A stretch of 64,000 nt of DNA from Owenia fusiformis (taxonomy: Eukaryota): the NCBI GenBank assembly GCA_903813345.2, contig CAIIXF020000001.1:7316001-7380000 (forward strand), given 5' to 3'. Under the pieces are notes generated by a model. The model saw nothing but the letters and a program-made list of their open reading frames with translations, was not told the origin of the DNA and searched no databases. This document shows positions 16,663 through 43,889 of this stretch, in pieces. Position numbers and translations under genes: made by a program. Each line of letters begins with the position of its first letter. Positions within the stretch are counted from its first letter, which is position 1.

Positions 16663-19600
16663 CTGATCAGTCCTTCAAAACGCAAGTGTAAATTATGTTA
16701 CACGATATGTTCTGTATGTTCTGTATTTCAATTCAAGATTTAAGTTCAAAAAGTAGGCTTAACAATGAGGAAGAAAATGTTTTTACAGAAAAAATTAATA
16801 ATGTTTCTCTTCACTCGGCTCCAGTCGCAGTGAAGACAGAGCGTGCGAAGATGAGATACAACAGTACTTGGAGAATAATCAAGAATAGATTATATTTAAT
16901 TTTAGTATTAGCGTCGCTATCATCTGTGTCACACGTTTCTTTAAAATAATACAAATACTTTTTTGAATTACTGAATTGAAAATATGACTCGCAAACATTT
17001 TCTTACAATAATTTTAGATTCTTTGGATTAAGTTGTATCATTAAATAAAACAACACATGGAATAATATCAGTTAGAACACATTGGTTGGGAAAGCAACTT
17101 TTAGTGCCTTCTGCAGATTTAAGGATTGAGCCAGGCTATTCTGATTTTTTGTTCATCTTTAAAAGCACAAAGAGAACTTTCAAATGAGCCATGGCTTGTG
17201 TCTTAACAATTTTTCCTTGCATATATAAACCAATAAGTCGGATTTGAATTTAGCACATTTCCTCTAAATCTTGGGCACATTTTTGGCTCTATAGCACAAT
17301 TTCAATTCTGTGATAAGACAGGTTTTCCTATGGCAAGGCTCAATTATCTATATATCATGGTAGACCATAATTTGTAATGAGGAGATGTTCAATTTCACAC
17401 TACTTGTCATGATCATACTAGTAAGTAAAAAATGCGGTACAGAATCATTATTCGCGAATGCATACTTTGCAGGCCCGTAGCAACTTTTTAAGAGATGTAC
17501 TGTCATACTTGGGATTGTAATGATGTCTTGCTGGGAGTTCTCTAAAAATAAAGCTGAAAAGTCGAGAGAAATGTTGAAAGGAGGATAAATTATTACGTTT
17601 AGTGAGCTCCTCCGCACCCAATATTTAGAGGGGGCTCATATCTGAAGAACATTTCCTAATTTTTATAAAATCACACAGATACTGCCTGGCTTCCAAAATG
17701 CAAAAATAATTTGTATGGATAGTGTATCTTGAACACCATTTTTTATAAATGCTGGGGACGCAGTATAAAAAGAATAATTTCAAAATATATAAGTCTGGGA
17801 AAGGTTTAAGGCATATTGCGTCGCTATAGAATGAATTGCACTACTATTTTCACAATTTTATTGATATTTGGTGTCAAATACACATATCTTGGTATATTTG
17901 AAGTCCCAAAACGGCTTAGTTTCAGAAATATCCCAAATTTAAATTAAAAAATGACCGTTCGCTCCGCACCCTCCGCTCATTTGCACCGCACCCAATATTT
18001 CCCACAGGCTCTGTCTGCAAAGGGTGTATCCGATCTTAATGTTTATTGAAGTACGTACCACATTCGTTTTTGTAAACATATGTAAAATATTGTAAATAGT
18101 GGGAGTGCCCTTTTTTAAAATAGAATACCGGTTTGGTGAGATATTTATTTTGATCTTTATTGATAACATGAATTTTGAACAATTGATTCAATCATGCATG
18201 ACAGTGAATGAGTGATTTGATCACTGTCTTGATACACGTACATGACGTATGATACATGAAACATGCGTTGACATTGGGTACACCCCAGTTGTCCGAAACC
18301 CAGTTGTTCGAAACACATTACTTCGAAAAAATAGTCATAATTTACCAGAGAAAGGGGGACGTACTTTTTAGGCCAGTTTCATGCCATGACGGGTTGCAAA
18401 AAGCTCGCGCACGCATTGTTACACATTTTGTGGCGTAATCCAGAGGATCCTCGCTTTTAACATGATAGAATGTGACGTTTTTGAGAAAAATGTACACACA
18501 TGAAAATCCTTTCGTCCTCCACATTTACCTCTATATCTCAAAACATTTTAGACGAATAACTCTGATATCATATATATATTGTTAATGGGCTAGGAGCATC
18601 ATAAAACACGAATCAATTGGCTTATGGGCCATGTAAACCAGGCTAGAATATGCAAATTAGATAGATACATATATGTATACATACATATATCTATGTATTC
18701 ATGCATATATATATTATATGCCAGCACAGAATATGCAAATTAGATAAATACATACATTATTATATGTATTCATATATATGTATGATATATATACAAGCAT
18801 GGAATATGTTAATTAGATAGACTAGATACATAACAATTAATTTATTAGTTGGCATAGTATATGTTAATTAAATAACAATAATTCATGAATATCTGAGATA
18901 TCTATGAATATGCTTTAATTTATGAGATATATGTGTATTGTATACATGTTATATATGTATGTATTTGTATATATCTTCTAAGCTGGTCCCCAGTCCCCAG
19001 TTCCCAGTTTGAGATATCTATATGCTATTTATAATATGTATGTATTTGTATGTATCTTTTAAGAAGGTCCCCAGTCCCCAGTTCCCAGTTTGAGATATTT
19101 ATATGCTATATATAATATGTATGTATTTGTATGTATCTTTTTAAGAAGGTCCCCAGTCCCCAGTTCCCAGTTTGAGATATCTATGTTTGTGTATATATGT
19201 ATTTGTATGTATCTTATAAGTTGGTCCCCAGTCCCCAGTTCCCATTTTGAGATATCTATGTCATATGTATGTATGTATCTTCTAAGCTGGTCCCCAGTCC
19301 CCAGTTCCCAGTTTGAGATATCTATATGTAGGTATTTGTATTAAACATTGACAGAATATGAAATGAATATAACTTCGTAACAAAAAAGTACAATTGTAAA
19401 TCTAATATGTACGTGTATTAAACATTGACGTCACAGAATATGAAATTAATATTCACCTTTCCACAAAGTAAAGAAAATCGATAATTTCCGGCGGGCTGAT
19501 TGGTTGTATGCAAATGAGTCAAATCAATGATGTCAATGCCTGAAAGTTTTGAAGAATTAGTACAGCCAGCATAGGAATATTTTGAATTAACTGCAATAAA

Positions 19601-22528: not shown

Positions 22529-25500
22529 GTCACGCTCCTCCAAGATATCAACTCTTTATCCCATACTTGGACGTGTTACGGGTACATAAAGCCGGTTTGT
22601 AAAAACTTATATTTTCATCAGCGGGCAGATATGGCTTTACGTCCCACTCCGAGCAGTCAGATATAGTATATCTGCCCGCTACGTCATAATCACTGTTCCC
22701 GTATTGGTTCCTTTTTGTAACGTTCGCATACTGTAAACCACAATGGAGAAAAACGCAGACAATTGCGATCTGTTTGATGCGTTAAAGAAGGGAAGGAGCA
22801 GTATACTCCATTAATAATCAAAGATTTGAACAGGAAAAGAAACAAGAATACAAAACTGGACATTTTAAAATAATTCTACGGTTGGTTGCAAAGTTTCTGA
22901 ACTTTGGCCAATTGAACAATGTGATTGGTATGGGATAAACAAATCATCCTATAGTCGGTTCAGGATATTTGGATTATCCCTTGGCCAATATAATATATCT
23001 GCCAGAGGGCCGTAATATCCTGAACCTCACATAGGATAATCTCTATATATCCCGATGTTTTCAAGTATGGTATTTTCAAGATATGATCTGATATGACTTG
23101 CAGAAATAAATAGGAAGTAATCGTTTAGTTGATTGAATCATTGAAGTAGTGAAGTCAAAGATTTAATGAATTAGAGCAAATGTTTTTCATTTGAACAGGT
23201 GATTCATCAAATGACAACTGAAGATTAACTTAAAATAGATTGTCTATCTATATATTTATATGCATGAGAGACATGTTATAATGTTAGTGAACTGATGATT
23301 ATGATAATTTCACCTGTTCACATCCAGTTCCTGTCATGATTGAAAACTGACCGGAGTAATTCTCTTCAAATTATTTACCCATTATGAACAGAAATTTAAT
23401 ATTTCAATCACTTAGAAGGCGCAAATAAATGCCAATTTGACTTTCAATAAAAATCCGTGAATGATTTACTGATTACTTGCACATTTGAAGAGGTAAAACT
23501 TACAGCAATCAAACGAGGATTTACATGTAAACTCAATTGCATTTGTTTTTCGCAGGAAAAAGTTTCTCTCATTGACGTCACAGATTTCTAAGCAGCTCAT
23601 TATAATATTCATTAGCTGACTTTGTGGAAAGGCGAATAACATTGTAACAAAAAAGTACAATTGTAAATCTAAGATTTATGTATTTAACAATTGTCTTCAA
23701 ATATCAAGGTAAAATAACCAAAATGTTATCTGAGTAGTATTACTCCAGTATATTGCATGTTTAAGTTATCTAATATTTATGAGCATTTTAAAACCTATTT
23801 TTTGGCATACAGCATCAATCAATTTGTACAGACTTTTATTCTTCTGTTTGGGTATGAGCTGCTAGTTCATAATGAAGGTGTTATATTTTTTTCTCTATCT
23901 GATCTAATACTGGCCACATGAGCACACCAGGTAGATATCAGTTACACAAACTTTAGAGCAACGTGGGGGGGGGGATCGCGATCGCCAAATTTTTGCTATA
24001 AGCTAGAAGCTTCCAACAAAATGCATTTTAAAGCTCTTATTTTTATTGGTCATCGCCCCTACCTCCTGACTACGCTTATGATAGGTATATAGGTCAAAAA
24101 TGGTAAGCGGCAATGGTCATAGTATGTCTAAAAATATAACTGATTCCAATGTAGATATTTTATACTCCATATTTCATTATAGAAATTTTAACTTTACTCC
24201 AGACTTAACAGAACTTTAACTTTTAAGAACTCTTTAAAATTGTCTTTGAATTATACATCGAATCAGCCTGAAACCTATCTTCTAGAGGAAAACAGTTAAT
24301 CCAGTCAAGACTACAGTAATGAGACAAACCCATAACTTACATAACTTAAATAATCTGTCTCCAGATTGGAAAAGAATTATACAGTTATATGAAGCACTAT
24401 AAAGCTGATAAGCTGTTAGTTATCCAAACATATGTGTCTACTTAAGATGGATCATTTTATGTCTTATCTTGATACTGATTTTAAATAGAGAGTCAATTTC
24501 AGAAGCTTTCAGTCTAATGTATTTCAATGTTTTATGAATTCTCTACCTTTTCAATATATTGAAGCAAAATTAGAAAAAAAGTAAAACAAAACCCCCCAAA
24601 AATAGATAAAAATCAACCAAAATTTCCTTTGTAGAGAGACTTAAACATGTTGTGTATGAGTCGTTTTGTTCAAAACAGGTTCGGAAAGATGTTTCATTTC
24701 ATTCTGAGCATATGAAACCAGAAGCAAAAGAAATGTTTGATGTGTTTTCTAAAACAATATAGAGAAAAGTATATACATTTTTTCAAATTATATTGTTACC
24801 ATTCAAAAGATGACCATTAAATTGACAATATGTAATTTTTAGAAATTTTTGATGACTGATTTAAGAGAAAAGAGTGTTCAAAAAGTTCACCATATCAATA
24901 CCAATACTTTACAGGTTCTCCTAAATATCCAGGATGTCAACTCTTCAGTCCATATGGAAAGGTTAAACTTGTGACTAGGATAACAAAAAGGTCAATCTTT
25001 CTATTTTCACATATTTTGTTATATATCAGATAGACATTGAAGTTCTGCCTAAATAAAATCTGGCTGTTCTTGGATTTTAAAGTGTTATGTAAAGATGATA
25101 ACTTAATGACTATTAGATGACTCTTCCACCTACACCAGTCCAGTCTATACCATTAAACATGTAATAAGAGAAGTTAATATACAGGGTGGTCCAAACAAGT
25201 GAACCCCTGCAACAGGCTATATTTTCCTTAATACTTGCATGAATAGACTCATATTATCACATGTTGTAGAAAAAGGTCTAAAACTTTGGTAGCTGCCATA
25301 ATCTATTCTCTGTCTTAAATTTTGAAGAAATCACAGCTAAATGAGGTTTTATATAGGATTCATCCTCAGTGTATATTGCTATCAACTCAAAAGAGAATGG
25401 ATCAAGATGAATCTTGAATGATTAAAAACTTTAAAATAGTTTATGTACTTTAACATAGAGATCTCGAAATGGGAACTGGGGACTGGGGACCAGCTTAGAA

Positions 25501-26097
25501 GATACATACAAATACAAATATACACAAACATAGATATCTCAAACTGGGAACTGGGGACTGGGGACCTTCTTAAAAGATACATACAGATACATACATACAT
25601 ATTATATATAGCATATAGATATCTCAAACTGGGAACCGGGGACTGGGGACCAGCTAAGAAGATACATACAAATACATACATATTATATATAACAATATAG
25701 ATATCTCAAACTGGGAATTGGGGACTGGGGACCTTCTTAAAAGATACATACAAATACATACATATTATATATAGCAATATCTCAAACTGGGAACTGGGGA
25801 CTGGGGACCTTCTTAAAAGATACATACAAATACATACATATTATATATAACAATATAGATATCTCAAACTGGGAACTGGGGACTGGGGACCAGCTTAGAA
25901 GATATATACAAATACATACATATATAACATGTATACAATACACACATATCTCATAAATTAAAGCATATTCATAGATATCTCAATGTAGGATATTCATGAA
26001 TTATTGTTATTTAATTAACATATTCTCTGCCAACTAATAAATTAATTGTTATGTATCTAGTCTATCTAATTAACATATTCCATGCTTGTATATATAT

Positions 26098-28496
26098 TGT
26101 GGGAAAATTTCATTTTTATATTGAGCCTTTTAAATTTTCCCATCTGTGCAGTTAGGGAAAGCCCTGTTTACTAGAGGGAATTCCAGGGTATTCCAACACA
26201 GGAAGGGGAATCCCCTCAATTGCTGCAATGCAGTGCCCCTGATTTCAAAATGTGGTCACCTGTGCCTGTATGACTCATGCCATCACGAGATGAGAACGAA
26301 GGTCGCCATCTTGAAGGAAGCAGCGTGAATCAAAGGTTGGGAGGAAATCCACATTTATCACACTTTAGAGTAGCCATCTGCCAAGGATTCGGGATTAATA
26401 ACGAATGATAAAGCGGGAAGACGCACCAGGAGGTTCTTGAAGGAGAAACAACAGAGAAAACCTGAATTTTTGGCAACTTAGAGAAAGAAGCATTTATTCG
26501 GGTGAGGTTTTTCCTTTTTGTAATTTGATTTTATGGCCAGCATGCTACTAGGTGCCTCTGACTGACTATAATTTTTAATTTCATGTGTACCAGAATTTGT
26601 AACTTTATGGCCAGCATGCTACTGGGATGCCTCTGACTGACTGTAGTTATAATTCAACGGGTATTGAGATTTATCGTGCGTCGCCATTTTGTGTCCCAGA
26701 CTTGCTAAAGTGAGATATTTGTCAGATTTAATGTAAAACAACACTGTGTCATTAATTGCCTAAAGTGTTGTCAAGAATTCTTCACAGTTCAGTGCTGTCC
26801 TAGGGGAAGCAGCAAGGAACAACCTGGAAGCAGCCTTGCATTATCGTTAGGTGAAATTGGGAAACTTCCCAAAACGGCGAACTAATTTTGTCAGTTGGTT
26901 TCACCGCTGACAGAAATAGTTCCAGGAAGACTTCCATCGCATCGGGCAGTGAGGAGCCTTCCCAGAAAACTCAAGAGCCATAGAGGCAGAGCAAGGCTAA
27001 AGAGCCAGAAGAGTCAAGTCAAGAGACAGCGTGAGCTTATTTTGTCAGTTGGTTTCACCGCTGACAGAAATAGTCCCAGGAAGACTTCAATCGCATCGGG
27101 CAGTGAGGAGCCTTCCCAGAAAACTCAAGAGCCATAGAGGCAGAGCAAGGCTAAAGAGCCAGAAGAGTCAAGTCAAGAGACAGCGTGAGATTATTTTGTC
27201 AGTTGGTTTCACCGCTGACAGAAATAGTCCCAGGAAGACTTCAATCGCATCGGGCAGTGAGGAGCCTTCCCAGAAAACTCAAGAGCCATAGAGGCAGAGC
27301 AAGGCTAAAGAGCCAGAAGAGTCAAGTCAAGAGACAGTGTGAGCTAATTTTGTCAGCTGGTTTCACCGCTGACAGAAATAGTTCCAGGAAGACTTCCATC
27401 GCATCGGGCAGTGAGGAGCCTTCCCAGAAAACTCAAGAGCCATAGAGGCAGAGCAAGGCTAAAGAGCCAGAAGAGTCAAGTCAAGAGTCACAGTGAACTA
27501 TTTTGTCAGTTGGTTTCACCGCTGACATAAATAGTTCCAGGAAGACTTCTAGAGCAACGAGCAGCTAGGAGCCTTCCCAGTAAGAAGAGGAACTAAGCTC
27601 AAGGGCCAGAGGAGCCAGGCTAAAGAGCTGAACGAGGAGCCAGAGGAGCCACGTTCGGGAGCCAGAGGAGCCAAGCTCAAGAGCCAGAGGGGCCGGGCTA
27701 AGGAGCCAAAGAGCTGGACGAGGAGCCAGAGGAGCCAAGTCCAGGAGCTAAAGGAGCCAAGCTCAAGAGCCAGAGGAGCCAGGCTAAAGAGCCAAAGAGC
27801 TGAACGAGGACCCAGAGGAGCCAAGTTCAGGAGCTCAAGGAGCCAAGCTTAGGAGCCAGAGGAGCCAGGCTAAGGAGCTAGAGGAGCCAGGCTAAAGAGC
27901 CAAAGAGCTGGACGAGGAGCCAGGCTAAGAGCCGAAGAGGAGCCAGAGGAGCCAGGCTAGGAGCCGAAGAGCCAAGTCCAGGAGCTAAAGGAGCCAAGCT
28001 CAAGAGCCAGAGGAGCCAGGCTAAGAGCCGAGGAGCCAGAGGAGCCAAGCTCAAGAGCCAGAGGAGCCAGGCTAGGAGCCGAAGAGCTGAACGAGGAGCC
28101 CGAGGAGCCAAGTTCAGGAGCCAGAGGAGCCAAGCTAAAGAGCCAAAGAGCTGGACGAAGAGCCAGAGGAGCCACGTTCAGGAGCCAGAGGAACCAAGTT
28201 CAAGAGCCAGAGGAGCCAGGCTACAGAGCCCAGGGAGCCAAGCAAAGAGCTAATAACGCAGCAACCGCCGACATCCATCCTACAAAGAGAATTATAGTGA
28301 CATTTTAGTTTATGAACATTAAAGTGTTATTTTCATGTGTTAATAGTTGTGTTAGAAATATATGTATTAAATTGGAAGCCATTTGTGACTGTCGTTTTAT
28401 CCAGTCCACCAAACCAGGACTGGGCCCACAGAGAAGTGTAAGGTGAAAAAGTTACTCATCGCTTCCAGACTATCAGCAAAAGTCTGGAACGCGACA
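26098..28496 (+). repeat. 5' LTR (2399 bp)
   Basis: Starts TGTGGGAAAA, ends GAACGCGACA; repeated at a constant offset of 6272. Confidence 0.95.
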
Positions 28497-28497
28497 T

Positions 28498-28515
28498 TGG
28501 TGTCAGAAGTGGGAT
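28498..28515 (+). promoter_or_regulatory. Primer binding site, tRNA-Leu
   Basis: TGGTGTCAGAAGTGGGAT, 1 nt after the 5' LTR, is complementary to the ...ATCCCACTTCTGACACCA 3' end of eukaryotic tRNA-Leu (CAA/CAG types). Confidence 0.85.
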
Positions 28516-28542
28516 AAGTAAAACGATAGTACCGAGCACAAT

Positions 28543-31500
28543 ATGGCAACATCAGACACAGATACAAGCCGAGCTATGGAGAGCAAGCTCCAAACAGATA
28601 GAGACATGGAGATGGACCTCCAATTAGATGGTGAAAAGACGGTGTTCTTCAAAGGACAACCAGGAGGTGATGACATGGTATTGGATGACACCATTCCTGT
28701 GGAAGATATGCCGTCACCAAACAGGCCAAAGAGGGCATTTCCGCTGCAGAGTACCGGATACTGGTCAGGAACAGAGCAGCGGGTGCTACCAAACTACGCG
28801 ACTCCACCAAGAGGAGCCCATGGTATTAATCAGCCAAGAACTTCTACTGAGGAGGTTCCAGTCAGCCGGATGAGTGAAGAATTGTTCACACTGCAGAGGG
28901 AGCTGGTGTCACAGCAGCTCCAAACAACTTTGCTGACGAGCAGTGTGAAAGAGCAGGGAGAATGTGTACATGAACTGAGGAGGGAGCAACAGACGTTAAG
29001 GGGAGACTTGAGCCAAGGCCTTAACACGTTTCAAAAGGATCTCTCCCTTGGGCTGAGTTCAGTGCATGGAGCCCTGCAATCCATTGCCCAGACTATAGAG
29101 CAGTCAAGATCCCCACCAGAGGAGATAAAGAGGACACATATTCGGGGGAGCAGTGTTAACCCAATGGCGAAGGAGTGGCAGGTATACCAGGATCCCAGCA
29201 CAGAGCACCAACTTAAGTCACGTTCAAGTTACAGAGGAATAAGTCCCCGTGAGTGTGGGCAAACGCAGTCAGAAGCTAACTTTCATAGAGAAGACACACC
29301 AATGATGTTTGAGCCAGTCCCCGGGGAGGCGGGAGGTTGGCTGCCTCCATATTTGGTTCAAGAGAGACGGGTAAAGCAGGAACAGGAAACTGCCTCTCAG
29401 CAAGATGACCCAGTACGCTCCACTTGGGAGAGGAGAACCACATATGGAGAGCCTCCACTACCTCCTCCTGGAATGAGATATCAAGCTCATCCGATGGAGG
29501 ATAGGTCACATCTGGAAGGGGGGAGTAATTGCTCTATAAAAGGAATGCAGAGAAATCCAGATCCCATGTTGTCATACGTTGAGGTTAGCAAAGAGTCGGG
29601 TGGTGCTGTGCCGAAACTTACTTCTTCGAGTAGAAGAGCAGAGAAAACAGCGGTGAAAGAAAGTCCTCAGCCAAGGTACAGACCTGAGTTGAAACAGGCC
29701 ACAATGATGGCGAACCCACACCTGGAACTACCATCTCGCAGTTCCCATAATGAGACAGCCCGAGTTACTCCAGAAGAGACAGCAACGGGAGCCACGGGGC
29801 AAGAACAAGACTGTGAGCCTGATGTGTCTCCAGGTAAGAAGAGTCGGAATAAAGAAGCTTCAAATGCCTCTGATACTTCGGCGCTAGATTCTGTTCTGCA
29901 AATGGCTCAGAAAGCTATCGAAATTTGTGGAAAGGCAGTCGAATCGTCAAATACCGGGAGAAATACAAGGATAAAGCCTACACAAACGTTCGATGGATCG
30001 AATCCCTGGCCAGATTACAAAGCATATTTTCAGACGTGTGTGGCAAATAATAACTGGACGGACAAAGAGAAGGCTCAGTATTTGGCCACCAACTTAAGAG
30101 GGGATGCCCAGCAGATTGTCCTGGAATTAGAGAGGGGCTACTCTTTTGAAGACCTACTGGAAGCCTTGGAGAAGAGGTTCGGCCCAGGCGGTAAGGCAGA
30201 TGTGTATGAGGCTGAGCTGTGCAGTCGAAAAAGAAAGCCCCGAGAATCTTTGCAAAGTCTAGGGCAACACATACGACGACTGACCTCCATGGCATACCCG
30301 GAAATGAGCCGGGATGTTCAAGATAGGCTCGCTCGCAGAAGCTTTGAACAAGCAATCCCAGATGAGGAGCTAAGGCGGGCCATACACAGTAAGGAGCCAT
30401 CCACACTAGACAAGAGCATTGAAATTGCTCTTAGAGAGGAGAGCTATCAAGAGTCTGAGAGAATAAGACAAGGGCTCAAAGGGAGGACTAAGGAGCAAAG
30501 AATCTCGACAGTGGAAGAAGACTCATCTGAATTTACCAAGCTGTTACATGGATTAAAAAGGGAATTGCTGACGGAAATAAAGAATCTTCAAAACAAGGAG
30601 GAGAGCCCCAAACCCCAGGGAAAGGCGGGAACGAGATATCCCTGCAAGAGCTGTGGGGAACGGGGACATTCAATGACCTCTTGCTCACAAACCAGGTGTT
30701 ACAACTGTGATGGGCTAGGTCATATTGCTTCCTCTTGTCCCGAGCCTCGGCGACACAGTAATGATTCAAGATTCAGCAACACCAGCCCTATTAGGTTTTT
30801 GTTCAATAACAATGTTGAGTTTCAGCCTGGTAGTAAGCGAGCAGTGCAGAAAATTCTTGCAGATGCAAAGTTTTGTGGAACTTCCATGCAGTTCCTCATT
30901 GATTCTGGGTCCATGCAGAACATGATCAGCATAGAAAGCTACCAGAAGATACCTCTTTGTCGACGACCCAGTTTGAAGCCTCCGTCTCAAGTATTTGTAC
31001 AAGCCGATGGATCTCCCCTTTCCATGTATGGTGAGATTACTGGAGAGATAAAGATAGAAGGGAGAACAACATTGACTACAGCTGTGGTAGCTGATATTGC
31101 TCAAGCTGGTATTCTTGGAGTAGAATACATGTCAACCAGTGGAGCTGTAATAAACTTCAACAAGTTGGAGATGTATTTTGATGACGGGGAAATGACAGAG
31201 CAACACCATGTGCAAGATGAGCAGACTCAAAGAACGAATATGACATCATTGAATGCCCTGAAGAAGCAGAAACAGCCATCCTCTGACCGAGCATTATTAC
31301 CACTACCCATGCGAAGATCTAAGAAAAACAAAAGGCGAGTTACATTTACCGAGGTTCTAAAGCAGAATAAGAAGACAACCTTTGATAAGAATGTTGATGC
31401 TGAGGATAGTGACCTGGAAGAAGAGAAAGCCGAACAACCAAGAGTTATGGCCAGTGATCGACACAAGGAAGAAAATTCTACTGGGTCTCATGCACCATAC

Positions 31501-32265
31501 CCATTTGCCCCTCGGGTTTGTCAACTAATGGCAGACGAGAACATTCCACCTTATTCAAGTAAGCTGTTAAAGGTCCACATTGCTCCTACAGAGGAGGCAA
31601 GTCAGATGGGGATCATCGAATCGGTGTTACCAGATGCTCTAGAATCTGATGAAGTGGTAGTAGTTACTTCCCTGACTGAGGCACGAGATGGGATTGCTCC
31701 AATCAAGCTGAGGAATTGTTCTGCGCATTCAGTTAGATTGGAGATGGGCACAATACTTGGTGTGTTTAGCTCAGTGGAGAATCTAGTGTCTCATTTAGAA
31801 GAGCCCCCAGAAGCAGTAAATCGAATCTCAGAGAAGAGAGAGCCAGTGGACAAAGAGCCGATGGCAGGACGGTTGAAAGATTGTCCACTGATAGAAGAAC
31901 AGGGGGAAAGAAATCCAGCCCTGTCAACTAAGCCCAGAAAAAGGAGGGGGAAGCATTCGAGGTCACAATTCAGGCCAAGGACCTGTGAGAGAAACAAACC
32001 TGCAAACGAGTATGCCAGAAAGAGGATTCTGCACAGGGAGGGTTATCTCAGGAGCTCCTCACACCAGTGGTACTATCCAGCTAAGAGCTCCCCTTGTAAG
32101 AGGAACTATCCTTCTAAGAATTCATCGTACAAGGAGCATCCTCCAAAGAGCTCAATGCATCAGAAAACAAGTCCAATTGGTGCCCCTCCATGGAGCATAC
32201 CTAAGTCAGCGAGCAAACATCAGAAAGACCAAGAGCCTTGGAGAGCTGATAAGCTTTTCCTTTAA
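28543..32265 (+). CDS. gag: Retrotransposon Gag-protease polyprotein, 1240 aa
   Basis: Capsid-type TFDGSNPWPDYKAYF...WTDKEKAQYLATNLRGDA; two CCHC knuckles (CKSCGERGHSMTSC, CYNCDGLGHIASSC); aspartic protease FLIDSGS...ILGVEY; no YxDD RT, RNase H or integrase motifs. Confidence 0.9.
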   Translation: MATSDTDTSRAMESKLQTDRDMEMDLQLDGEKTVFFKGQPGGDDMVLDDTIPVEDMPSPNRPKRAFPLQSTGYWSGTEQRVLPNYATPPRGAHGINQPRTSTEEVPVSRMSEELFTLQRELVSQQLQTTLLTSSVKEQGECVHELRREQQTLRGDLSQGLNTFQKDLSLGLSSVHGALQSIAQTIEQSRSPPEEIKRTHIRGSSVNPMAKEWQVYQDPSTEHQLKSRSSYRGISPRECGQTQSEANFHREDTPMMFEPVPGEAGGWLPPYLVQERRVKQEQETASQQDDPVRSTWERRTTYGEPPLPPPGMRYQAHPMEDRSHLEGGSNCSIKGMQRNPDPMLSYVEVSKESGGAVPKLTSSSRRAEKTAVKESPQPRYRPELKQATMMANPHLELPSRSSHNETARVTPEETATGATGQEQDCEPDVSPGKKSRNKEASNASDTSALDSVLQMAQKAIEICGKAVESSNTGRNTRIKPTQTFDGSNPWPDYKAYFQTCVANNNWTDKEKAQYLATNLRGDAQQIVLELERGYSFEDLLEALEKRFGPGGKADVYEAELCSRKRKPRESLQSLGQHIRRLTSMAYPEMSRDVQDRLARRSFEQAIPDEELRRAIHSKEPSTLDKSIEIALREESYQESERIRQGLKGRTKEQRISTVEEDSSEFTKLLHGLKRELLTEIKNLQNKEESPKPQGKAGTRYPCKSCGERGHSMTSCSQTRCYNCDGLGHIASSCPEPRRHSNDSRFSNTSPIRFLFNNNVEFQPGSKRAVQKILADAKFCGTSMQFLIDSGSMQNMISIESYQKIPLCRRPSLKPPSQVFVQADGSPLSMYGEITGEIKIEGRTTLTTAVVADIAQAGILGVEYMSTSGAVINFNKLEMYFDDGEMTEQHHVQDEQTQRTNMTSLNALKKQKQPSSDRALLPLPMRRSKKNKRRVTFTEVLKQNKKTTFDKNVDAEDSDLEEEKAEQPRVMASDRHKEENSTGSHAPYPFAPRVCQLMADENIPPYSSKLLKVHIAPTEEASQMGIIESVLPDALESDEVVVVTSLTEARDGIAPIKLRNCSAHSVRLEMGTILGVFSSVENLVSHLEEPPEAVNRISEKREPVDKEPMAGRLKDCPLIEEQGERNPALSTKPRKRRGKHSRSQFRPRTCERNKPANEYARKRILHREGYLRSSSHQWYYPAKSSPCKRNYPSKNSSYKEHPPKSSMHQKTSPIGAPPWSIPKSASKHQKDQEPWRADKLFL

Positions 32266-32357
32266 AGAAGGCACCAGGAGTCAGAGAGTGAAGACAGTTA
32301 TAGTACATTTGTTTTTATAGTTTGCATATTTTTTTTATGTGAGGGCACATAAAAGCT

Positions 32358-32367
32358 AGAAGGGGGG
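32358..32367 (+). promoter_or_regulatory. Polypurine tract
   Basis: AGAAGGGGGG, two nt before the 3' LTR. Confidence 0.8.
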
Positions 32368-32369
32368 TA

Positions 32370-34768
32370 TGTGGGAAAATTTCATTTTTATATTGAGCCT
32401 TTTAAATTTTCCCATCTGTGCAGTTAGGGAAAGCCCTGTTTACTAGAGGGAATTCCAGGGTATTCCAACACAGGAAGGGGAATCCCCTCAATTGCTGCAA
32501 TGCAGTGCCCCTGATTTCAAAATGTGGTCACCTGTGCCTGTATGACTCATGCCATCACGAGATGAGAACGAAGGTCGCCATCTTGAAGGAAGCAGCGTGA
32601 ATCAAAGGTTGGGAGGAAATCCACATTTATCACACTTTAGAGTAGCCATCTGCCAAGGATTCGGGATTAATAACGAATGATAAAGCGGGAAGACGCACCA
32701 GGAGGTTCTTGAAGGAGAAACAACAGAGAAAACCTGAATTTTTGGCAACTTAGAGAAAGAAGCATTTATTCGGGTGAGGTTTTTCCTTTTTGTAATTTGA
32801 TTTTATGGCCAGCATGCTACTAGGTGCCTCTGACTGACTATAATTTTTAATTTCATGTGTACCAGAATTTGTAACTTTATGGCCAGCATGCTACTGGGAT
32901 GCCTCTGACTGACTGTAGTTATAATTCAACGGGTATTGAGATTTATCGTGCGTCGCCATTTTGTGTCCCAGACTTGCTAAAGTGAGATATTTGTCAGATT
33001 TAATGTAAAACAACACTGTGTCATTAATTGCCTAAAGTGTTGTCAAGAATTCTTCACAGTTCAGTGCTGTCCTAGGGGAAGCAGCAAGGAACAACCTGGA
33101 AGCAGCCTTGCATTATCGTTAGGTGAAATTGGGAAACTTCCCAAAACGGCGAACTAATTTTGTCAGTTGGTTTCACCGCTGACAGAAATAGTTCCAGGAA
33201 GACTTCCATCGCATCGGGCAGTGAGGAGCCTTCCCAGAAAACTCAAGAGCCATAGAGGCAGAGCAAGGCTAAAGAGCCAGAAGAGTCAAGTCAAGAGACA
33301 GCGTGAGCTTATTTTGTCAGTTGGTTTCACCGCTGACAGAAATAGTCCCAGGAAGACTTCAATCGCATCGGGCAGTGAGGAGCCTTCCCAGAAAACTCAA
33401 GAGCCATAGAGGCAGAGCAAGGCTAAAGAGCCAGAAGAGTCAAGTCAAGAGACAGCGTGAGATTATTTTGTCAGTTGGTTTCACCGCTGACAGAAATAGT
33501 CCCAGGAAGACTTCAATCGCATCGGGCAGTGAGGAGCCTTCCCAGAAAACTCAAGAGCCATAGAGGCAGAGCAAGGCTAAAGAGCCAGAAGAGTCAAGTC
33601 AAGAGACAGTGTGAGCTAATTTTGTCAGCTGGTTTCACCGCTGACAGAAATAGTTCCAGGAAGACTTCCATCGCATCGGGCAGTGAGGAGCCTTCCCAGA
33701 AAACTCAAGAGCCATAGAGGCAGAGCAAGGCTAAAGAGCCAGAAGAGTCAAGTCAAGAGTCACAGTGAACTATTTTGTCAGTTGGTTTCACCGCTGACAT
33801 AAATAGTTCCAGGAAGACTTCTAGAGCAACGAGCAGCTAGGAGCCTTCCCAGTAAGAAGAGGAACTAAGCTCAAGGGCCAGAGGAGCCAGGCTAAAGAGC
33901 TGAACGAGGAGCCAGAGGAGCCACGTTCGGGAGCCAGAGGAGCCAAGCTCAAGAGCCAGAGGGGCCGGGCTAAGGAGCCAAAGAGCTGGACGAGGAGCCA
34001 GAGGAGCCAAGTCCAGGAGCTAAAGGAGCCAAGCTCAAGAGCCAGAGGAGCCAGGCTAAAGAGCCAAAGAGCTGAACGAGGACCCAGAGGAGCCAAGTTC
34101 AGGAGCTCAAGGAGCCAAGCTTAGGAGCCAGAGGAGCCAGGCTAAGGAGCTAGAGGAGCCAGGCTAAAGAGCCAAAGAGCTGGACGAGGAGCCAGGCTAA
34201 GAGCCGAAGAGGAGCCAGAGGAGCCAGGCTAGGAGCCGAAGAGCCAAGTCCAGGAGCTAAAGGAGCCAAGCTCAAGAGCCAGAGGAGCCAGGCTAAGAGC
34301 CGAGGAGCCAGAGGAGCCAAGCTCAAGAGCCAGAGGAGCCAGGCTAGGAGCCGAAGAGCTGAACGAGGAGCCCGAGGAGCCAAGTTCAGGAGCCAGAGGA
34401 GCCAAGCTAAAGAGCCAAAGAGCTGGACGAAGAGCCAGAGGAGCCACGTTCAGGAGCCAGAGGAACCAAGTTCAAGAGCCAGAGGAGCCAGGCTACAGAG
34501 CCCAGGGAGCCAAGCAAAGAGCTAATAACGCAGCAACCGCCGACATCCATCCTACAAAGAGAATTATAGTGACATTTTAGTTTATGAACATTAAAGTGTT
34601 ATTTTCATGTGTTAATAGTTGTGTTAGAAATATATGTATTAAATTGGAAGCCATTTGTGACTGTCGTTTTATCCAGTCCACCAAACCAGGACTGGGCCCA
34701 CAGAGAAGTGTAAGGTGAAAAAGTTACTCATCGCTTCCAGACTATCAGCAAAAGTCTGGAACGCGACA
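32370..34768 (+). repeat. 3' LTR (2399 bp)
   Basis: Same termini; ORF-track translations inside both LTRs are identical at offset 6272. Confidence 0.95.
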
Positions 34769-36169
34769 ATATCATACATATATATAAATACATATAATAA
34801 TAATGTATGTATCTATCTAATTTGCATATTCTGTGCTGGCATATATAGATATATGCATCTGTATATATATGCATATATGTATCTATCTAATTTGCATATT
34901 CTGTGCTGGTTTACATGGCCCATAAGCCAATCAATTGATATTTTAGGTGAAATAAATATACGTGTTGCTGTGCTTGAAAATAGGCGAATGGCGTAAATTA
35001 GTCCTATTTTAATGAATTTTGAAAACCTTTCGTCCTCCACTTTTCCACATACAACAGAAAACACATACTTTTGTGAACAAAATCAACTAATTATTAATAA
35101 ACTAGAGTTTAGGAGCAAAATAATCATGTATGATTTATTAAAAATTGATCTCGTATTTTTTGTTTAATGTACACCTGAAAAGTTGAAGGTACCAAAAAAT
35201 GAGCAAAAAAGGTCGCTGTCAACAGATTCTATTTTTCAGACTCTATGACGTCACAATATGGGACGCTTACTAAAATTCATCCTTTGAAATAAAACTTCCA
35301 TCTACCTTTATCAAGACGAAAAATAAGTATAATAGTCATATATTGTTTGAGTTATGAGCGTATAAAGACGAAAAATAATTCAAAATGTAACGTGTCAACA
35401 TGGGATATTTGCCAGATGTTTTGGTAAAAAACTCTTTTTTAAAAACGAACGCGCAAAAAATGTGAACGGAGTGTAGTTGATCTAAAATCTTCATCGAAAC
35501 AGCTTTAAAATGATATATAACTTTAATTAGAATATTATCTTATATTCCGGGGAATCAAAGTTACACAAAGAAATTAGCAGGTGTAAGTGTCTTTGGGTGG
35601 CTATTTTTCTTCAAATTCTTCATTTTTTTGCCAGCTGTCAACACATTCTGGCAATGCTTTAATTTTAATAGAATTATTTTAATATTTTACTAACTGTATA
35701 ATATGTAGTTTGCATTACTGTTGATACATAAATAAATGATTGCACTGTTCAGTAAAGAAATATACCAATTGTATTATTTAAACTGACTATACACTATAGA
35801 AATGATTTTCATTGAAAAATCAAATCAGTACCAAAATTATGGTTACCCTGTAGTGGTGAAAGGCAAATTAAAAATGAATATCACCCCCTTCAATCTATTT
35901 TTACAGGTTTTTATGATTATTTCAGATTTTCTATAGTTTGCGTAACCAGGACGGTGAATTTTCTTCATTTTTCATCAAACATTTTGTCTTACCAATATTT
36001 ATTATATCTGTCAATTTTATCAAAATCGCGCCGCTACGTTTGAAAATAATTCAAATTATGTAGTTTTTCCCATTGAGCTCCATTATAAAAATGGAATTTT
36101 CAAACTTAATATTTTAAAATTCTACGCGGTGAAAAGTTGCATATTGAGTAGTTAGTAAATGTTATGGTG

Positions 36170-36790: not shown

Positions 36791-39700
36791 CTAAGAGCAT
36801 ACTACAAGTTCTACACTTACTACGTAAACTACGCCACTACGCTGAAGTTGGGTCAGGTTACGAGAATATTACACGTACTGAACTTACTACACTTACTACG
36901 TATACTACAGTACTACGCTGGGGTTGGGTCAGGCTAGGGGTATACTACACTTAATACACTAACTATGTATACTACGCTACTACACTCTGGTAAAAATGAT
37001 CTAGACAAGCTTGCTCTCTGGGCTGCCACCTGGAAGATGCAATTCAAAGCTCAAATAAGTGCAGATATGATTTTTTCTAGAAGGAACATTTTATCTCATC
37101 CACCACCTTTGAGATTAGGTGCTGATGTTATCCCTAGCTGTGAGAATCACAAACATCTTGGCCTTAATTTTGACAATCACCTTAACTTTAATTATCACAT
37201 TGACCAGATTATAAAAAGAGTAACTTCTTTTTTGAGACCGATGATGAAGCTGAGTAAAATTATAAATAGTCAGCACTTAGAGATATTATATAATACTTAC
37301 ATTATGCCTCATCTTGACTATTGTGATGTCATCTACAACAAGGCATCTAACATGAAATTACAAGCTCTTGAAAGACTTCACTACAGAGCAGCTTGCCTGG
37401 TTTCTGGGGCTATACACGCTACTACGCTGGGGTAGGGTCAGGCTAGGAGCATACTACACTTACTACGTTTACTACGCTACTACGCTTGGGTAGGGTCAGG
37501 CGAGGAGCATACTACACTTACTACACTTACTACGCTACTACGCTGGGGTGGGGTCAGGCTAGAAGCATGCTACACTTACTAAACTTACTACGTATACTAC
37601 GCTACTACGCTGGGGTAGGGTCAGGCTAGGAGCATAATACACTTACTACACTTACTACGTATACTACGCTACTACGCTGGGGTGGGGTCAGGCTAGGAGC
37701 ATACTACACTTACTACGTATACTACGCTACTACGCTGGGGAAGGGGCAGGCTAGGAGCATACTACACTTACTACACTTACTACGTATACTACGCTACTAC
37801 GCTGGGGTAGGGTCAGGCTAGGAGCATATTACACTTACTACGTATACTACGCTACTACGCTTGGGTAGGGTCAGGCGAGGAGCATACTACACTTACTACG
37901 TATACTACGCTACAACGCTGGGGTGGGGTCAGGCTAGAAGCTTGCTACACTTACTACACTTACTACGCATACTACGCTACTACGCTGGGGTAGGGTCAGG
38001 CTAGGAGCATGCTACACTTACTACACTTACTACGTATACTACGCTACTACTCTGGGGTAGGGTCAGGCTAGGAGCATAATACACTTACTACACTTACTAC
38101 GTATACTACGCTACTACGCTGGGGTGGGGTCAGGCTAGGAGCATACTACACTTACTACACTTACTACGTATACTACGCTACTACGCTGGGGTAGGGTCAG
38201 GGTAGGAGCATACTACACTTACTACGTATACTACGCTACTACGCTGGGGTAGGGTCAGGCTAGGAGCATACTACACTTACTACACTTACTACGTATACTA
38301 CGCTACTACGCTGGGGTAGGGTCAGGCGAGGAGCATACTACACTTACTACACTTACTACGTATACTACGCTTCTACGCTGGGGTGGGGTCAGGCTAGGAG
38401 CATGTTTCACTTACTACACTTACTACGCATACTACGTATACTACGCTACTACGCTGGGGTAGGGTCAGGCTAGGAGCATACTACACTTACTACACTTACT
38501 ACGTATACTACGCTACTACGCTGGGGTGGGGTCTGGCTAGGAGCATACTACACTTACTACATTTACTACGCATACTACGCTACTACGCTGGGGTAGGGTC
38601 AGGCTAGGAGCATGCTACACTTACTACACTTACTACACTAACTACGTATACTACGCTACTACGCTGGGGTAGGGTCAGGCTAGGAGCATACTACACTTAC
38701 TACACTTACTACGTATACTACGCTACTACGCTGGGGTAGGGTCAGGCTAGGAGCATACTACACTTACTACGTATACTACGCTACTACGCTTGGGTAGGGT
38801 CAGGCGAGGAGCATACTACACTTACTACGTATACTACGCTACAACGCTGGGGTGGGGTCAAGCTAGAAGCTTGCTACACTTACTACACTCACTACGCATA
38901 CTACGCTTCTACGCTGGGGTAGGGTCAGGCTAGGAGCATGCTACACTTACTACACTTACTACGTATACTACGCTACTACTCTGGGGTAGGGTCAGGCTAG
39001 GAGCATACTACACTTACTACACTTACTACGTATACTACGCTACTACGCTGGGGTAGGGTCAGGCTAGGAGCATACTACACTTACTACGTATACTACGCTA
39101 CTTCGTTACTACGCTGGGGTAGGGTCAGGCGAGGAGCATACTACACTTACTACACTTACTACGTATACTACGCTACTACGCTGGGGTGGGGTCAGACTAG
39201 AAGCATGCTACACTTACTACACTTACTACGCATACTACGCTACTACGCTGGGGTAGGGTCAGGCTAGGAGCATACTACACTAACTACACTTACTAAACTT
39301 ACTACGTATACTACGCTACTACGCTGGGGTAGGGCCAGGCTAGGAGCATAATACACTTACTACACTTACTACGTATACTACGCTACTACGCTGGGGTGGG
39401 GTCAGGCTAGGAGCATACTACACTTACTACACTTACTACGTATACTACGCTACTACGCTGGGGTAGGGTCAGGCTAGGAGCATACTACACTTACTACACT
39501 TACTGCGTATACTACGCTACTACGCTGGGGTAGGGTCAGGCTAGGAGCATACTACACTTACTACACTTACTACATATACTACGCTACTACGCTGGGGTAG
39601 GGTCAGGCGAGGAGCATACTACACTTACTACACTTACTACGTATACTACGCTACTACGCTGGGGTGGGGTCAGGCTAGGAGCATGCTACACTTACTACAC

Positions 39701-41170
39701 TTACTACGCATACTACGTATACTACGCTACTACGCTGGGGTAGGGTCAGGCTAGGAGCATACTACACTTACTACACTTACTACGTATACTACGCTACTAC
39801 GCTGGGGTGGGGTCTGGCTAGGAGCATACTACACTTACTACATTTACTACGCATACTACGTATACTACGCTACTACGCTGGGGTAGGGTCAGGCTAGGAG
39901 CATGCTACACTTACTACACTTACTATGTATACTACGCTACTACGCTGGGGTAGGGTCAGGCTAGGAGCATACTACACTCACTACACTTACTACGTATACT
40001 ACGCTACTACACTGGGGTAAGGTCAGGCTAGTAGCATACTACACTTACTACGTATACTACGCTACTACGCTGGGGTGAGGGTCAGGCTAGGAGCATACTA
40101 CACTTACTACACTTACTACGCATACTACGTATACTACGCTACTACGCTGGGGTGGGGTCAGGCTAGGAGCATGCTACACTCACTACACTTACTACGCATA
40201 CTACGCTACTACGCTGGGGTAGGGTCAGGCTAGGAGCATACTACACTTACTACACTTACTACGTATACTACGCTACTACGCTGGGGTGGGGTCAGGCTAG
40301 GAGCATGCTACACTTACTACACTTACTACGTATACTACGCTACTACGCTGGGGTGGGGTCAGGCTAGGAGCTCACTACACTTACTACGTATACTACGCTA
40401 CTACGCTTGGGTAGGGTCAGGCGAGGAGCATACTACACTTACTACGTATACTACGCTACTACGCTGGGGTGGGGTCAGGCTAGGAGCATGCTACACTTAC
40501 TACACTTACTACGCATACTACGTATACTACGCTACTACGCTGGGGTAGGGTCAGGCGAGGAGCATACTACACTTACTACACTTACTACGTATACTACGCT
40601 TCTACGCTGGGGTGGGGTCAGGCTAGGAGCATGCTACACTTACTACACTTACTACGCATACTACGTATACTACGCTACTACGCTGGGGTAGGGTCAGGCT
40701 AGGAGCATACTACACTTACTACACTTACTACGTATACTACGCTACTACGCTGGGGTGGGGTCTGGCTAGGAGCATACTACACTTACTACATTTACTACGC
40801 ATACTACGTATACTACGCTACTACGCTGGGGTAGGGTCAGGCTAGGAGCATGCTACACTCACTACACTTACTACGCATACTACGCTACTACGCTGGGGTA
40901 GGGTCAGGCTAGGAGCATACTACACTTACTACACTTACTACGTATACTACGCTACTACGCTGGGGTGGGGTCAGGCTAGGAGCATGCTACACTTACTACA
41001 CTTACTACGTATACTACGCTACTACGCTGGGGTGGGGTCAGGCTAGGAGCTCACTACACTCACTACACATACTACGCTACTACGATGGGGCAGGGGTCAG
41101 GCTAGGAGCATAGTACACTTACTACACATACTACGTATACTACGCAGCTAGGCTGGGGTGGTCTCAGGCT
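36790..41170 (-). repeat. Satellite arm (right), reverse complement of the left arm, interrupted by a LINE fragment
   Basis: TACTACGCTGGGGTAGGGTCAGGCTAGGAGCATACTACACTTAC... tandem units. Confidence 0.97.
36992..37413 (+). mobile_element. Internal fragment of a CR1/L2-group LINE reverse transcriptase embedded in the satellite
   Basis: NDLDKLALWAATWKMQF...HKHLGLNFDNHLNFNYHI...LYNTYIMPHLDYCDVIY...LERLHYRAACLVSG is the RT C-terminal/thumb region. Confidence 0.85.
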
Positions 41171-43889
41171 ATGACTGTTTTCACATGGTCGTGCGGCACA
41201 TGCATGAGAGTTTTCATATAGGGCATTCGGGTGATTAGCGGCCATGTTAGACCTAATGAGGTCGCATGAGCTTACAAAACGCTTCTTCCAAAGTTTGATT
41301 AAATTGCAGTTTGATTTGCAAGCCCACGTTTATAAACTTATTAGGCCTGATAGGATCTGAATTGACCGTTGATGAGTTACTAGATATTAATCAAATCGGA
41401 TGACACAGGAAGAACTACCTAGAGGCCAAAATTATATGAATTAAAGCACCAAAATTTCTATTTTTTTATTCTGCCACTCTGATTTAAAAGTTTCAAAATA
41501 TTGAGGTATGTTACCTTCTTCTTAGGCTACTATATTGGCTAGAGATTAAATTGTCTACATTGACTGCCGAAACTGGATAATCATGTTAACGATGCATAAT
41601 ATTTTTGGAAAAATATAAAAAGAAATTCTGAAATTACTTTTGCGACGTCTTGATCCTTGGCTCTGATGCCTTGTACAGTAACATTAATATCCAGTGGAGG
41701 TACCGTTTCCTCCTTTGTATAATAGCCTAGTGAATGGCAACAGACGCAGGCCTGTCAAGTGTCCCGCAATTTGTGTATTTGCTGAAGAAATTGAAGTCAC
41801 GCCAGTATTTTTGCGTGACAGAATATGTCACACTGACACAAATACACCTCCTCTGATTATTGTCGAGCAAAAATCTATCTGGAGAAGAACATCAAAAAAA
41901 TAAATCACAGAAAAAATGTCATGTGAATTGCGCATATGTCACACATTTGCTTCGAAATTTTTGTCTCCCTGCCTGAAAATCAAGATATTCATGTAATTAT
42001 TAAACTATACTTTAATGTTTAGATGGCACCACAATTCATATCAAAGCTCAGGTGAAATTGTGGTCTTTCACCCTTTCATATATATGGAAAAGGCAAAGTA
42101 TTTTATTGGTCATATTGCACAGTGGTACTATAGGGGGGCACTACCTCTTAAGTATGCATTCTGCAAAAATACTGTTCATTCTTTTAAATATGAAGTTATC
42201 CCTATTCAAATAATATTATATCTAGCTTTATATATTTGACAACAACCCTGATATATACATATTTATGAAGCATAATTACAATGTTTGTCATTAGTTATGC
42301 ACTGAAATGGATGTGATGTGTGACACAATCATTCAAGAGACATCCCAAACTATACATCTGACATATAAAGAACAATGGGCTGATAACTCAACAAGGCGCT
42401 TATAGTCTATTATGATAAATAAACTATACTACCTGTACATGTAGTAAGTATACTATTCTTATGTATTGCTCTCATGTACATTGGCACTAGCATTGTTACA
42501 TATCTTTCATATAGCACAACCACTCAAATGCATGATATGTGGCGCTGAATGGTCATCAGCACTATCTTTTTTCATAGGGTTAACCACATATCCAGAATAT
42601 GGTATGATATTGAAATAAGACCATTATGCACACACCGTACATCATATTTTAAGTTCAAGTTTGAAGTACATGTTAAAGTCTTATACACTACAATGTAATT
42701 GAGAAATGTGTAAATCTAGGTGACAATACATGTATGCCCCATTCAAGGAGGTCAAAAGTTTGGCATCACCTGTTGTCTAAGTTTGAGAGCACCTAAGCAT
42801 TTCACAATCATCATTTACATCTATTGTGCTCCCGGGGTTTTCTCAAAATATCATTTTGGGTCTGCCAAAGTTCTGATTCATAGAAATGATAATATCTCTG
42901 ATATCAAGTCGTCATGTGTATCAAAAAATGGCAAATGATTTTACATTGAAGAGAAGGATGAAAATGAGATTTGGGATTTATTGGAGAAAAATTCTCAAAA
43001 AAATTCAACTGAAAATACAGTTCATTGTATCTGTGATATTTGCTCTAAATACAATTTAAGTATAGGCCTAAGATATGATATAGATGATTGTTTTCTCTAT
43101 TTGTACATGTAAATGAAATAAGTTTTTTGATACAGTATTGTCTTTGCTGTAACTTCATCTTTATCAGCATCTTATAAAGTCGAAAAGAAATGCTATTTAT
43201 GCAGCTCCTCTCTATTCTATTGTTGGTCATTCACCAAATGGGCTTTTGGCATATTTTGAGATGTGTCCTTGAAATTTGTACATTATTAATCTATTTGGCA
43301 AACATTCTTATCATTTTACATGTGAGAGTCAGTGTCCATGTATTATTTCTTACATCTTGCATGTGGTAAATCATTACATTAGATAACATTATAGCCTACA
43401 ATTTATGAAGCTTTGCAGTTCATATACATTGTAAGTGAAAACCTGGCAACATCTTGGGAAATAGCCTCATCATATAATTTCTAATCAGGACACAGTGGAT
43501 ATATAAATTCAAAAGGACTAAAAGCAAAATCAAACACTTTTTCACCGTCAAAAAGCAATGGATTTTAGGAAAAAATCAAGGCATTATCACATTCAAAATA
43601 AAATCAAACATTTCTGACTTGTTGGAATCAAGAAATGACTAAAATCTACGTAGCACCTTTAAATTAATCATTCCCTATTAAATATTAATCTGTGTTCTCT
43701 ACTTTAGGACTGAGTGACCTGATCAAGGCCAGTTGAAGAAGTAAGATGGCCCTGATTGGTTGGAATAGTGTGAGAGGTATTGCAAAACACTTATCTAGGA
43801 ACAGATCAGCTGTTTGTAGCACATGCATAACCTGTAAGCCAGCATTGCAGAGCAAGTTACAGTCTGTTTATATTTTACAAACTGCCAGT

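Follow-up and report, generated by a model that had tools for sequence, protein, structure and literature searches.

Within a 64,000-nucleotide stretch of the Owenia fusiformis genome (assembly GCA_903813345.2, contig CAIIXF020000001.1, positions 7,316,001 to 7,380,000 of the forward strand; hereafter the window), a Ty3/Gypsy-type long terminal repeat (LTR) retrotransposon of 8,671 bp (positions 26098-34768) belongs to a lineage that lacks reverse transcriptase (RT), RNase H and integrase, that has spread in this form, that is mosaic in structure, and that has an intact relative carrying its cis-acting signals. We consider it likely that the element is semi-autonomous and helper-dependent, and that its capsid and LTRs are kept matched to those of the helper by template switching in shared particles.

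The original prediction, made from the sequence alone, had described a recent insertion with all of its cis signals intact, and each of these was found: TG..CA termini, a primer-binding site (PBS) complementary to the 3' end of host tRNA-Leu(CAG) genes, a polypurine tract (PPT), and a short target-site duplication (TSD), ATAT. The insertion lies inside one arm of an inverted repeat whose opposite arm (~18.6-19.3 kb) keeps the empty site near 18.8 kb; because this mirror arm preserves the empty site, the TSD can be fixed at exactly 4 bp despite the AT-rich surroundings of ATAT. Full alignment of the LTRs (2,399 bp each, around an interior of 3,873 bp), which had previously been compared only by spot checks, gave 0 mismatches and 0 gaps. 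Divergence is accordingly below about 0.13%, far from the substantial divergence that would have spoken against a young insertion, and gene conversion or assembly polishing could also have homogenized the pair. Tandem arrays, overlooked in the original prediction, make up about 1.3 kb of each LTR and vary in length between copies, so that LTRs range from 1,674 to 2,685 bp; neither the arrays nor an overlapping frame of 141 amino acids (aa) matched a Pfam family.

As predicted, one open reading frame (ORF) of 1,240 aa occupies most of the 3.87-kb interior and contains a capsid, two CCHC knuckles and a DSG protease; the interior holds no further frame longer than 150 aa. Pfam placed zf-CCHC above its cut-off, with weak, below-cut-off matches to capsid (E = 0.0016) and aspartyl protease (E = 0.017). 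The absence of RT, RNase H and integrase was likewise upheld, as Pfam reported no family for any of the three in the element, and a tblastn search using the RT-RNase H-integrase portions of four of this genome's elements found no match in the whole window. A domain following the protease had been missed. Its structure model is beta-rich (pLDDT 82), profile searches match it to dUTPases (E = 0.002-0.009), and the top Foldseek rows are all dUTPases (probability 1.0, TM-score about 0.6; best E = 0.002, none at or below 0.001). Pfam recognized a dUTPase in only 2 of the 23 members of an alignment of this region (A1; best E = 0.035), and the ESM Atlas gave 30 clusters, none of them named, at up to 0.96, without pointing to a family. 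Because the canonical catalytic motifs are not recognizable in the alignment, the domain is probably not an enzyme. A homologue search with aa 470-1240 returned none at E ≤ 0.001 among 8,000 candidates, which is no proof of absence.

Genome searches, in which the best 40 of 52 candidates were scored for the interior and the best 40 of 41 for the 3' end, show that this organization is shared. The 3'-end search recovered at least 13 loci with the Pol-less 3' end, at separate sites and with their own TSDs, and a Pol search in the other 12 gave a match in none (0 of 12). Among nine siblings with two full LTRs, six have identical LTRs, and the remainder differ by one gap, 2 mismatches and 15 mismatches. 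Given at least 13 Pol-less loci with their own TSDs and young LTR pairs, the Pol-less form is the transposing form, and the family moves in it. The recent Pol-less retrotransposition originally proposed is therefore sustained, and the opposite case, in which this copy alone had suffered a deletion among relatives with a full pol, fails. Subgroup A comprises the window element and L031-L036 (seven loci, 90-97% identical) and subgroup B L041-L046 (about 75-83%); the two have their tail, PPT context and U3 start in common at an interior identity of 59-79%. The ORF is open from the first ATG through the protease in 10 of the 13 loci; the exceptions are L034, with a later opening, L031, with a stop inside the protease, and L035, which is 5'-truncated and broken. 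One subgroup B copy (L045/L068) has its 5' LTR split by about 10 kb of other DNA. Among two-LTR copies for which both flanks were read, all 12, counting the helper, have matching 4-bp TSDs that end in AT or AC, as do 7 of 11 solo-LTR stretches; the TSDs of the family are ATAT, ATAC, GTAT and CTAT. Across several related families the TSD is nearly always ATAT, ATAC or GTAT, which suggests an integrase with a strong preference for alternating purine-pyrimidine, AT-rich targets.

An autonomous Gypsy partner sharing PBS, LTR ends and PPT core, whose existence the original prediction had anticipated, is present on C7 (L037/L067, G000:C7, about 2,026,100-2,038,970), and its sequence marks it as the likely helper. 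This 12.9-kb element encodes a single ORF of about 2,681 aa in the order Gag, protease, RT (YLDD), RNase H and integrase, after which a long tail bears a C2H2 finger; the Ty3/Gypsy order protease-RT-RNase H-integrase is thus seen in the helper, whose gag is 97% identical to that of the Pol-less window element. Its LTRs (2,294 bp) differ by one mismatch, its TSD is ATAT, and it has the same PBS, LTR termini and PPT core as the window element, together with 99% identity in the unique LTR segments. In a pol search (best 40 of 58 scored), only this element and two broken tandem copies on C4 exceeded 81% identity, giving three helper-type loci, one with an unbroken ORF, versus 13 Pol-less loci. The RT has relatives in Gypsy polyproteins from many animals (41-58% identity), to which no clade name is attached. 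The broken C4 copies (L038-L040, L069) apparently share LTRs. Helper Pol runs about 570 aa past integrase (L067:3750-5489); this extension, possibly a targeting module, has a stretch rich in Arg, Ser and His as well as a C2H2 zinc finger, and is acidic at its end.

The last ~115 aa of the window ORF, also missed previously, match this post-integrase extension (40% over 77 aa, E = 3e-9, composition-adjusted; DNA E = 3e-7). This homology indicates that the lineage arose by an internal deletion, across which the protease-RT linker and the Pol tail stayed in one open reading frame. In another family, the ORF of L064 likewise ends in an integrase C-terminal piece. Origin of the deletion from a spliced transcript was considered and set aside, the junctions being too diverged to place and the reads, at a depth too low to judge, showing no joints.

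Alignment of the window element with the helper divides the interior sharply: 69 of 2280 positions mismatch up to ~30777 and 225 of 983 beyond it, a contrast that 0 of 200 permutations equalled. The breakpoint, which all seven subgroup A loci have in common, separates the second knuckle from the protease. It opens a block of about 1.7 kb (30777-32490; protease, dUTPase-like domain/linker, tail, PPT and U3 start) with helper-like sequence on both sides, and the window element reads as a mosaic in which a helper-like LTR, PBS and gag surround an old core. The proposal that the element kept its own particle proteins accordingly holds for the protease and 3' end, which are old and lineage-specific, but not for gag, which is exchanged. 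Within gag, which siblings share states with the helper changes from tract to tract (70 informative sites, 0 of 1000 permutations), so the exchange was repeated. The PBS variant differs between subgroups B and A, A having that of the helper, and the PBS apparently moves together with the exchanged block.

The same arrangement recurs elsewhere in the genome. Twenty weaker matches of the interior search were fetched, several of which are further Pol-less elements, and nine of these were checked. In 7 of 9, both LTR ends and the PPT were resolved, the interior measures 3.0-4.4 kb and the TSDs match; for L057, which is a tandem array, the TSD was not read, and L065 and L066 were resolved only roughly. 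Amino-acid identities between Pol-less and helper elements are 98% in capsid and 46% in protease for L051-L053, 96% and 46% for L057-L056, and 96% and 50% for L065-L061, compared with 64% and 85% between the Pol-less L051 and L064, and 68-81% and 34-56% between helpers. The protease tree places the Pol-less L054, L057, L060, L065 and L066 together (bootstrap 91), apart from autonomous elements (90), whereas the capsid tree pairs each of them with a helper (96-100). Approximately unbiased tests (19 of 27 rows, groups picked after viewing the other domain's tree) rejected each domain's groups in the other domain (p = 0.00005, 0.047, 0.006, 0.002 and 0.004). L048-L050, in which no protease motif was found, and L031a, whose ORF ends within the protease, were left out of the domain trees. 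In the window family and three other pairs, these comparisons point to a recurring mosaic in which the capsid is shared and the protease private. An estimate of at least four independent Pol losses, drawn from a joint capsid-protease tree, was dropped because the separate trees show recombination. L057, with L090, forms a Pol-less tandem on C12 whose members apparently share LTRs, and L048, L049 and L050, which have long opposite-strand open frames in their LTR arrays, are an apparent further step to Gag only.

Template switching within shared particles offers a likely route to these mosaics. On general retrotransposon biology, element RNA would be translated into Gag-protease that co-assembles with helper Gag-Pol, and tRNA-Leu would prime synthesis, with helper enzymes copying and integrating the element. 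In particles holding both RNAs, RT would switch template and keep capsid and LTR matched to the helper, while the protease-side core would stay diverged because a crossover there requires a second one in the short, poorly homologous 3' end if the product is to remain Pol-less. Ectopic gene conversion between integrated copies, with capsid matching a by-product of homology, would yield the same helper-dependent element, and we regard it as unlikely. The tracts are indeed patchy, some being short (about 200 bp in L044 and L046), and long LTR arrays could promote pairing; however, the main breakpoint is common to subgroup A loci on different contigs, the helper-like block links U3 to U5-PBS-gag as two RNA template switches would, and the identity drop lies near the Gag/protease border in four families.

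Synonymous divergence (dS) bears on the direction of exchange. In capsid it is 0.12 between subgroup A and the helper, 0.67 (0.49-0.89) between A and B, and 0.67 between the helper and B; the corresponding protease values are 0.73, 0.45 (0.33-0.64) and 0.78. Helper-B values are thus alike in the two domains, and the A-B values fit A as the recipient of helper gag, a direction that is weakly supported. A reversed or mixed direction, in which autonomous elements took gag and LTR from the commoner Pol-less copies, is improbable. It gains from the copy numbers (13 Pol-less, 3 helper-type) and from a second system (L054/L057/L060/L065/L066 versus L056/L059-L063) in which two swaps either way fit the trees equally, and loses from the dS pattern, with its overlapping intervals, and from the nesting of L065/L066 among helper capsids, where inner support is weak.

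Substitution ratios across copies, proposed earlier as a check, reveal constraint. Over capsid-protease, pairwise ratios of nonsynonymous to synonymous divergence (dN/dS) are 0.09-0.18 in subgroup A (10 pairs) and 0.12-0.27 in subgroup B (15 pairs), with a looser N-terminal region (0.28-0.73). Since gag is open to import, a cleaner test comes from the 3' part outside the sequence shared with the helper; here dN/dS is 0.32 (0.23-0.49) over four A copies and 0.23 (0.11-0.42) for the protease alone. This purifying selection implies that the protein was used while the element was Pol-less, unless an unsampled autonomous element supplied the 3' part. Such values bear on ordinary decay, by which recent, repeated internal deletions of an autonomous element would leave ORFs open only through youth. 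Identical LTRs and the near-identical gag accord with decay, but the protease, linker and tail are at least 23% diverged from every helper-type copy found, the two subgroups have a tail, PPT context and U3 start in common despite their distance, and Pol-less copies differ from one another by a dS of up to 0.3, at a dN/dS of about 0.15; this very improbable reading is largely refuted. Purifying selection would also be expected of a domesticated host gene with an Arc/PNMA/Bik-like Gag function, as would a weak PNMA match in Pfam (E = 0.02), and zebrafish Bik Gag-only elements are described with host roles (PMC12067270, in the part available). Many dispersed young copies, an ORF start or body broken or shortened in 3 of 13, very low RNA and an insertion inside another repeat nevertheless make host-maintained function scarcely credible. 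RNA reads cannot be tied to the window locus itself; in run X11 most interior reads, including those of the Pol-less-specific tail, have the orientation that sense RNA would give in common stranded libraries, a weak indication, and an index look-up listed no run recorded as RNA as a holder.

Several points weigh against helper dependence with template switching as set out above. Co-packaging and trans-mobilization are deduced rather than observed, DNA-level gene conversion could be a source of the same mosaics, and the assembly may not contain the real helper, be it an allele or an element. The A-B dS intervals for capsid and protease overlap, which leaves the direction weak; the protease amino-acid tree does not join A with B; and the helper-like protease tract of L044 and L046 extends exchange beyond gag. 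Low gag dN/dS may itself be imported from helpers. RNA is scarce: three runs, of which 11-13 million records were read, yielded 28, 22 and 10 reads, and no silent stretch served as a control.

A broader proposal, which we hold only tentatively, is that old Pol-less satellites persist across the Gypsy clade in this animal by tracking the capsid of whichever autonomous element is active, each lineage retaining its own protease and 3' module and being able to switch helper. Selection for co-assembly would fix recombinants carrying helper gag. Other single-ORF elements need surplus Gag; because the helpers here have Gag and Pol in a single ORF of ~2,700 aa, an arrangement that provides no excess of Gag, Pol-less partners may, speculatively, supply that surplus (and protease), to the presumed benefit of the helper. 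If true, the pair would form a partly cooperative two-component system and not a case of simple parasitism.

Table 1. Features of the Pol-less element (window coordinates)
Feature	Position	Strand	Remarks
5' TSD copy	26094..26097	.	ATAT; sequence and empty-site mirror arm
5' LTR	26098..28496	+	2,399 bp, TG..CA
U3 5' end	26098..26220	+	seen in Pol-less loci; helper has a different ~620-bp segment there
Unique LTR segment	26229..26880	+	99% identity with helper LTR
154-bp tandem array in LTR	26885..27580	+	4.5 copies; copy number differs between family copies
Purine-rich array in LTR	27635..28250	+	~22-bp unit
PBS, tRNA-Leu(CAG)	28498..28515	+	same as helper's; subgroup B has another variant
Single ORF	28543..32265	+	1,240 aa: Gag, protease, dUTPase-like, Pol-derived tail
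Capsid domain	29950..30462	+	98% aa identity to helper's
Two CCHC zinc knuckles	30643..30738	+	aa 701 and aa 719
Recombination breakpoint versus helper	30770..30785	+	3.0% divergence left, 22.9% right
Aspartic protease	30859..31182	+	DSG at 30901-30909 (aa 787); 77% aa identity to helper's
Degenerate dUTPase-like domain	31510..31776	+	aa ~990-1078; also in helper, absent from subgroup B
Basic C-terminal tail	31915..32262	+	homologous to helper post-integrase extension, same reading frame
PPT	32358..32367	+	
3' LTR	32370..34768	+	identical to 5' LTR
3' TSD copy	34769..34772	.	ATAT

The arms of the inverted repeat (window 18602-19342 versus 25450-26097 plus 34769-34945) are 83-89% identical, contain ~81-bp subrepeats and enclose about 6 kb with ~520-570-bp repeats; the structure is probably a non-autonomous DNA element, of foldback or other type, whose right arm received the LTR element. 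Arrays of a 67-bp unit in opposite orientations (10555-15715, 75 copies; 37510-41171, 55 copies), 22-29 kb apart, flank the whole region, and a 43-bp tandem array of 42 copies with strong strand skew lies at 45930-47753.

A literature search that took in few subscription papers, and neither Repbase nor supplements, revealed no systematic exchange of capsids, nor any invertebrate family that is Gag-protease-only and paired with a helper. The gain here lies in the identified partner and the recurring mosaic of shared capsid and private protease. Together they document, in an animal, a Gag-protease-only LTR element with the relative that probably helps it, and they provide a signature, readable from sequence, of the way in which such dependants remain compatible. 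Annotation by RT or integrase overlooks most copies of such families (13 versus 3 here), and gag-based trees overcount independent Pol losses. Genomes can now be used to ask whether non-autonomous LTR elements are co-packaged with helpers, and whether a retained Gag ORF benefits the helper or the element alone.

The window element is most likely a real, young, Pol-less, helper-dependent element with a known way of life, and its relation to described systems is graded (the sources below being considered in the parts available). Large retrotransposon derivatives, over 4 kb and without a coding region, are ruled out by the 1,240-aa ORF under purifying selection, and the non-autonomous elements described from mosquito are non-coding (PMC3286476). 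Among the animal non-autonomous LTR families, which include zebrafish Gag-only elements (PMC12067270; PMC13269885), BHIKHARI-2 has an intact gag without pol or env; it and chicken ENS-1 are, however, endogenous retroviruses with developmental roles in the host, BHIKHARI-2 encoding Gag only, whereas no role is shown for the window element (PMC12067270). Planarian, rotifer and fungal LTR elements are reported to carry a dUTPase-like domain at the same position, between protease and RT (PMC6431247); that of the window element may share the fold but differs in having no recognizable canonical motifs. The likeness to plant terminal-repeat retrotransposons with a Gag domain (TR-GAG), suggested at the outset, extends to the way of working: TR-GAG elements, described from coffee, have LTRs, PBS, PPT, TSD and one ORF, and are trans-mobilized and expressed, but by definition they are under 4 kb and encode Gag only (PMC4350172), while the window element measures 8,671 bp and its ORF continues beyond Gag into protease, dUTPase-like domain and Pol tail. 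It stands closer to the Gag-protease elements known from wheat, from Brassicaceae and from sugar beet. Only Gag and protease remain in 934 of 2,322 ATHILA elements of Brassicaceae (bioRxiv 10.64898/2026.03.20.713144), and sugar beet has 28 GAG/PROT families out of 115 (PMC13570524); both show recurrent RT-RNase H-integrase loss, recent activity and common recombination, but the available text of these accounts describes neither systematic capsid exchange with a helper nor an in-frame Pol tail, both of which the window element has. As in gag-protease ATHILA and wheat RLG_Sabrina_SA, we find a Gag-protease ORF without Pol, an amplified deleted form, and a partner sharing PBS, PPT and LTR ends. 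Recombination among non-autonomous elements and LTR transfer between partners have already been proposed in this literature; for non-autonomous Angela, the suggested routes of LTR transfer are gene conversion and template switching (PMC9744471). The same work describes RLG_Sabrina_SA and RLG_WHAM as having an intact Gag-protease ORF without RT or integrase, a long co-evolution with autonomous RLG_Wilma, and a proposed role in Gag supply (PMC9744471). In wheat, homology between the partners is down to a few motifs, whereas the window element, in an animal host and with array-filled LTRs of 2.4 kb, combines a gag and LTR 97-99% identical to those of its helper with a protease that is old.

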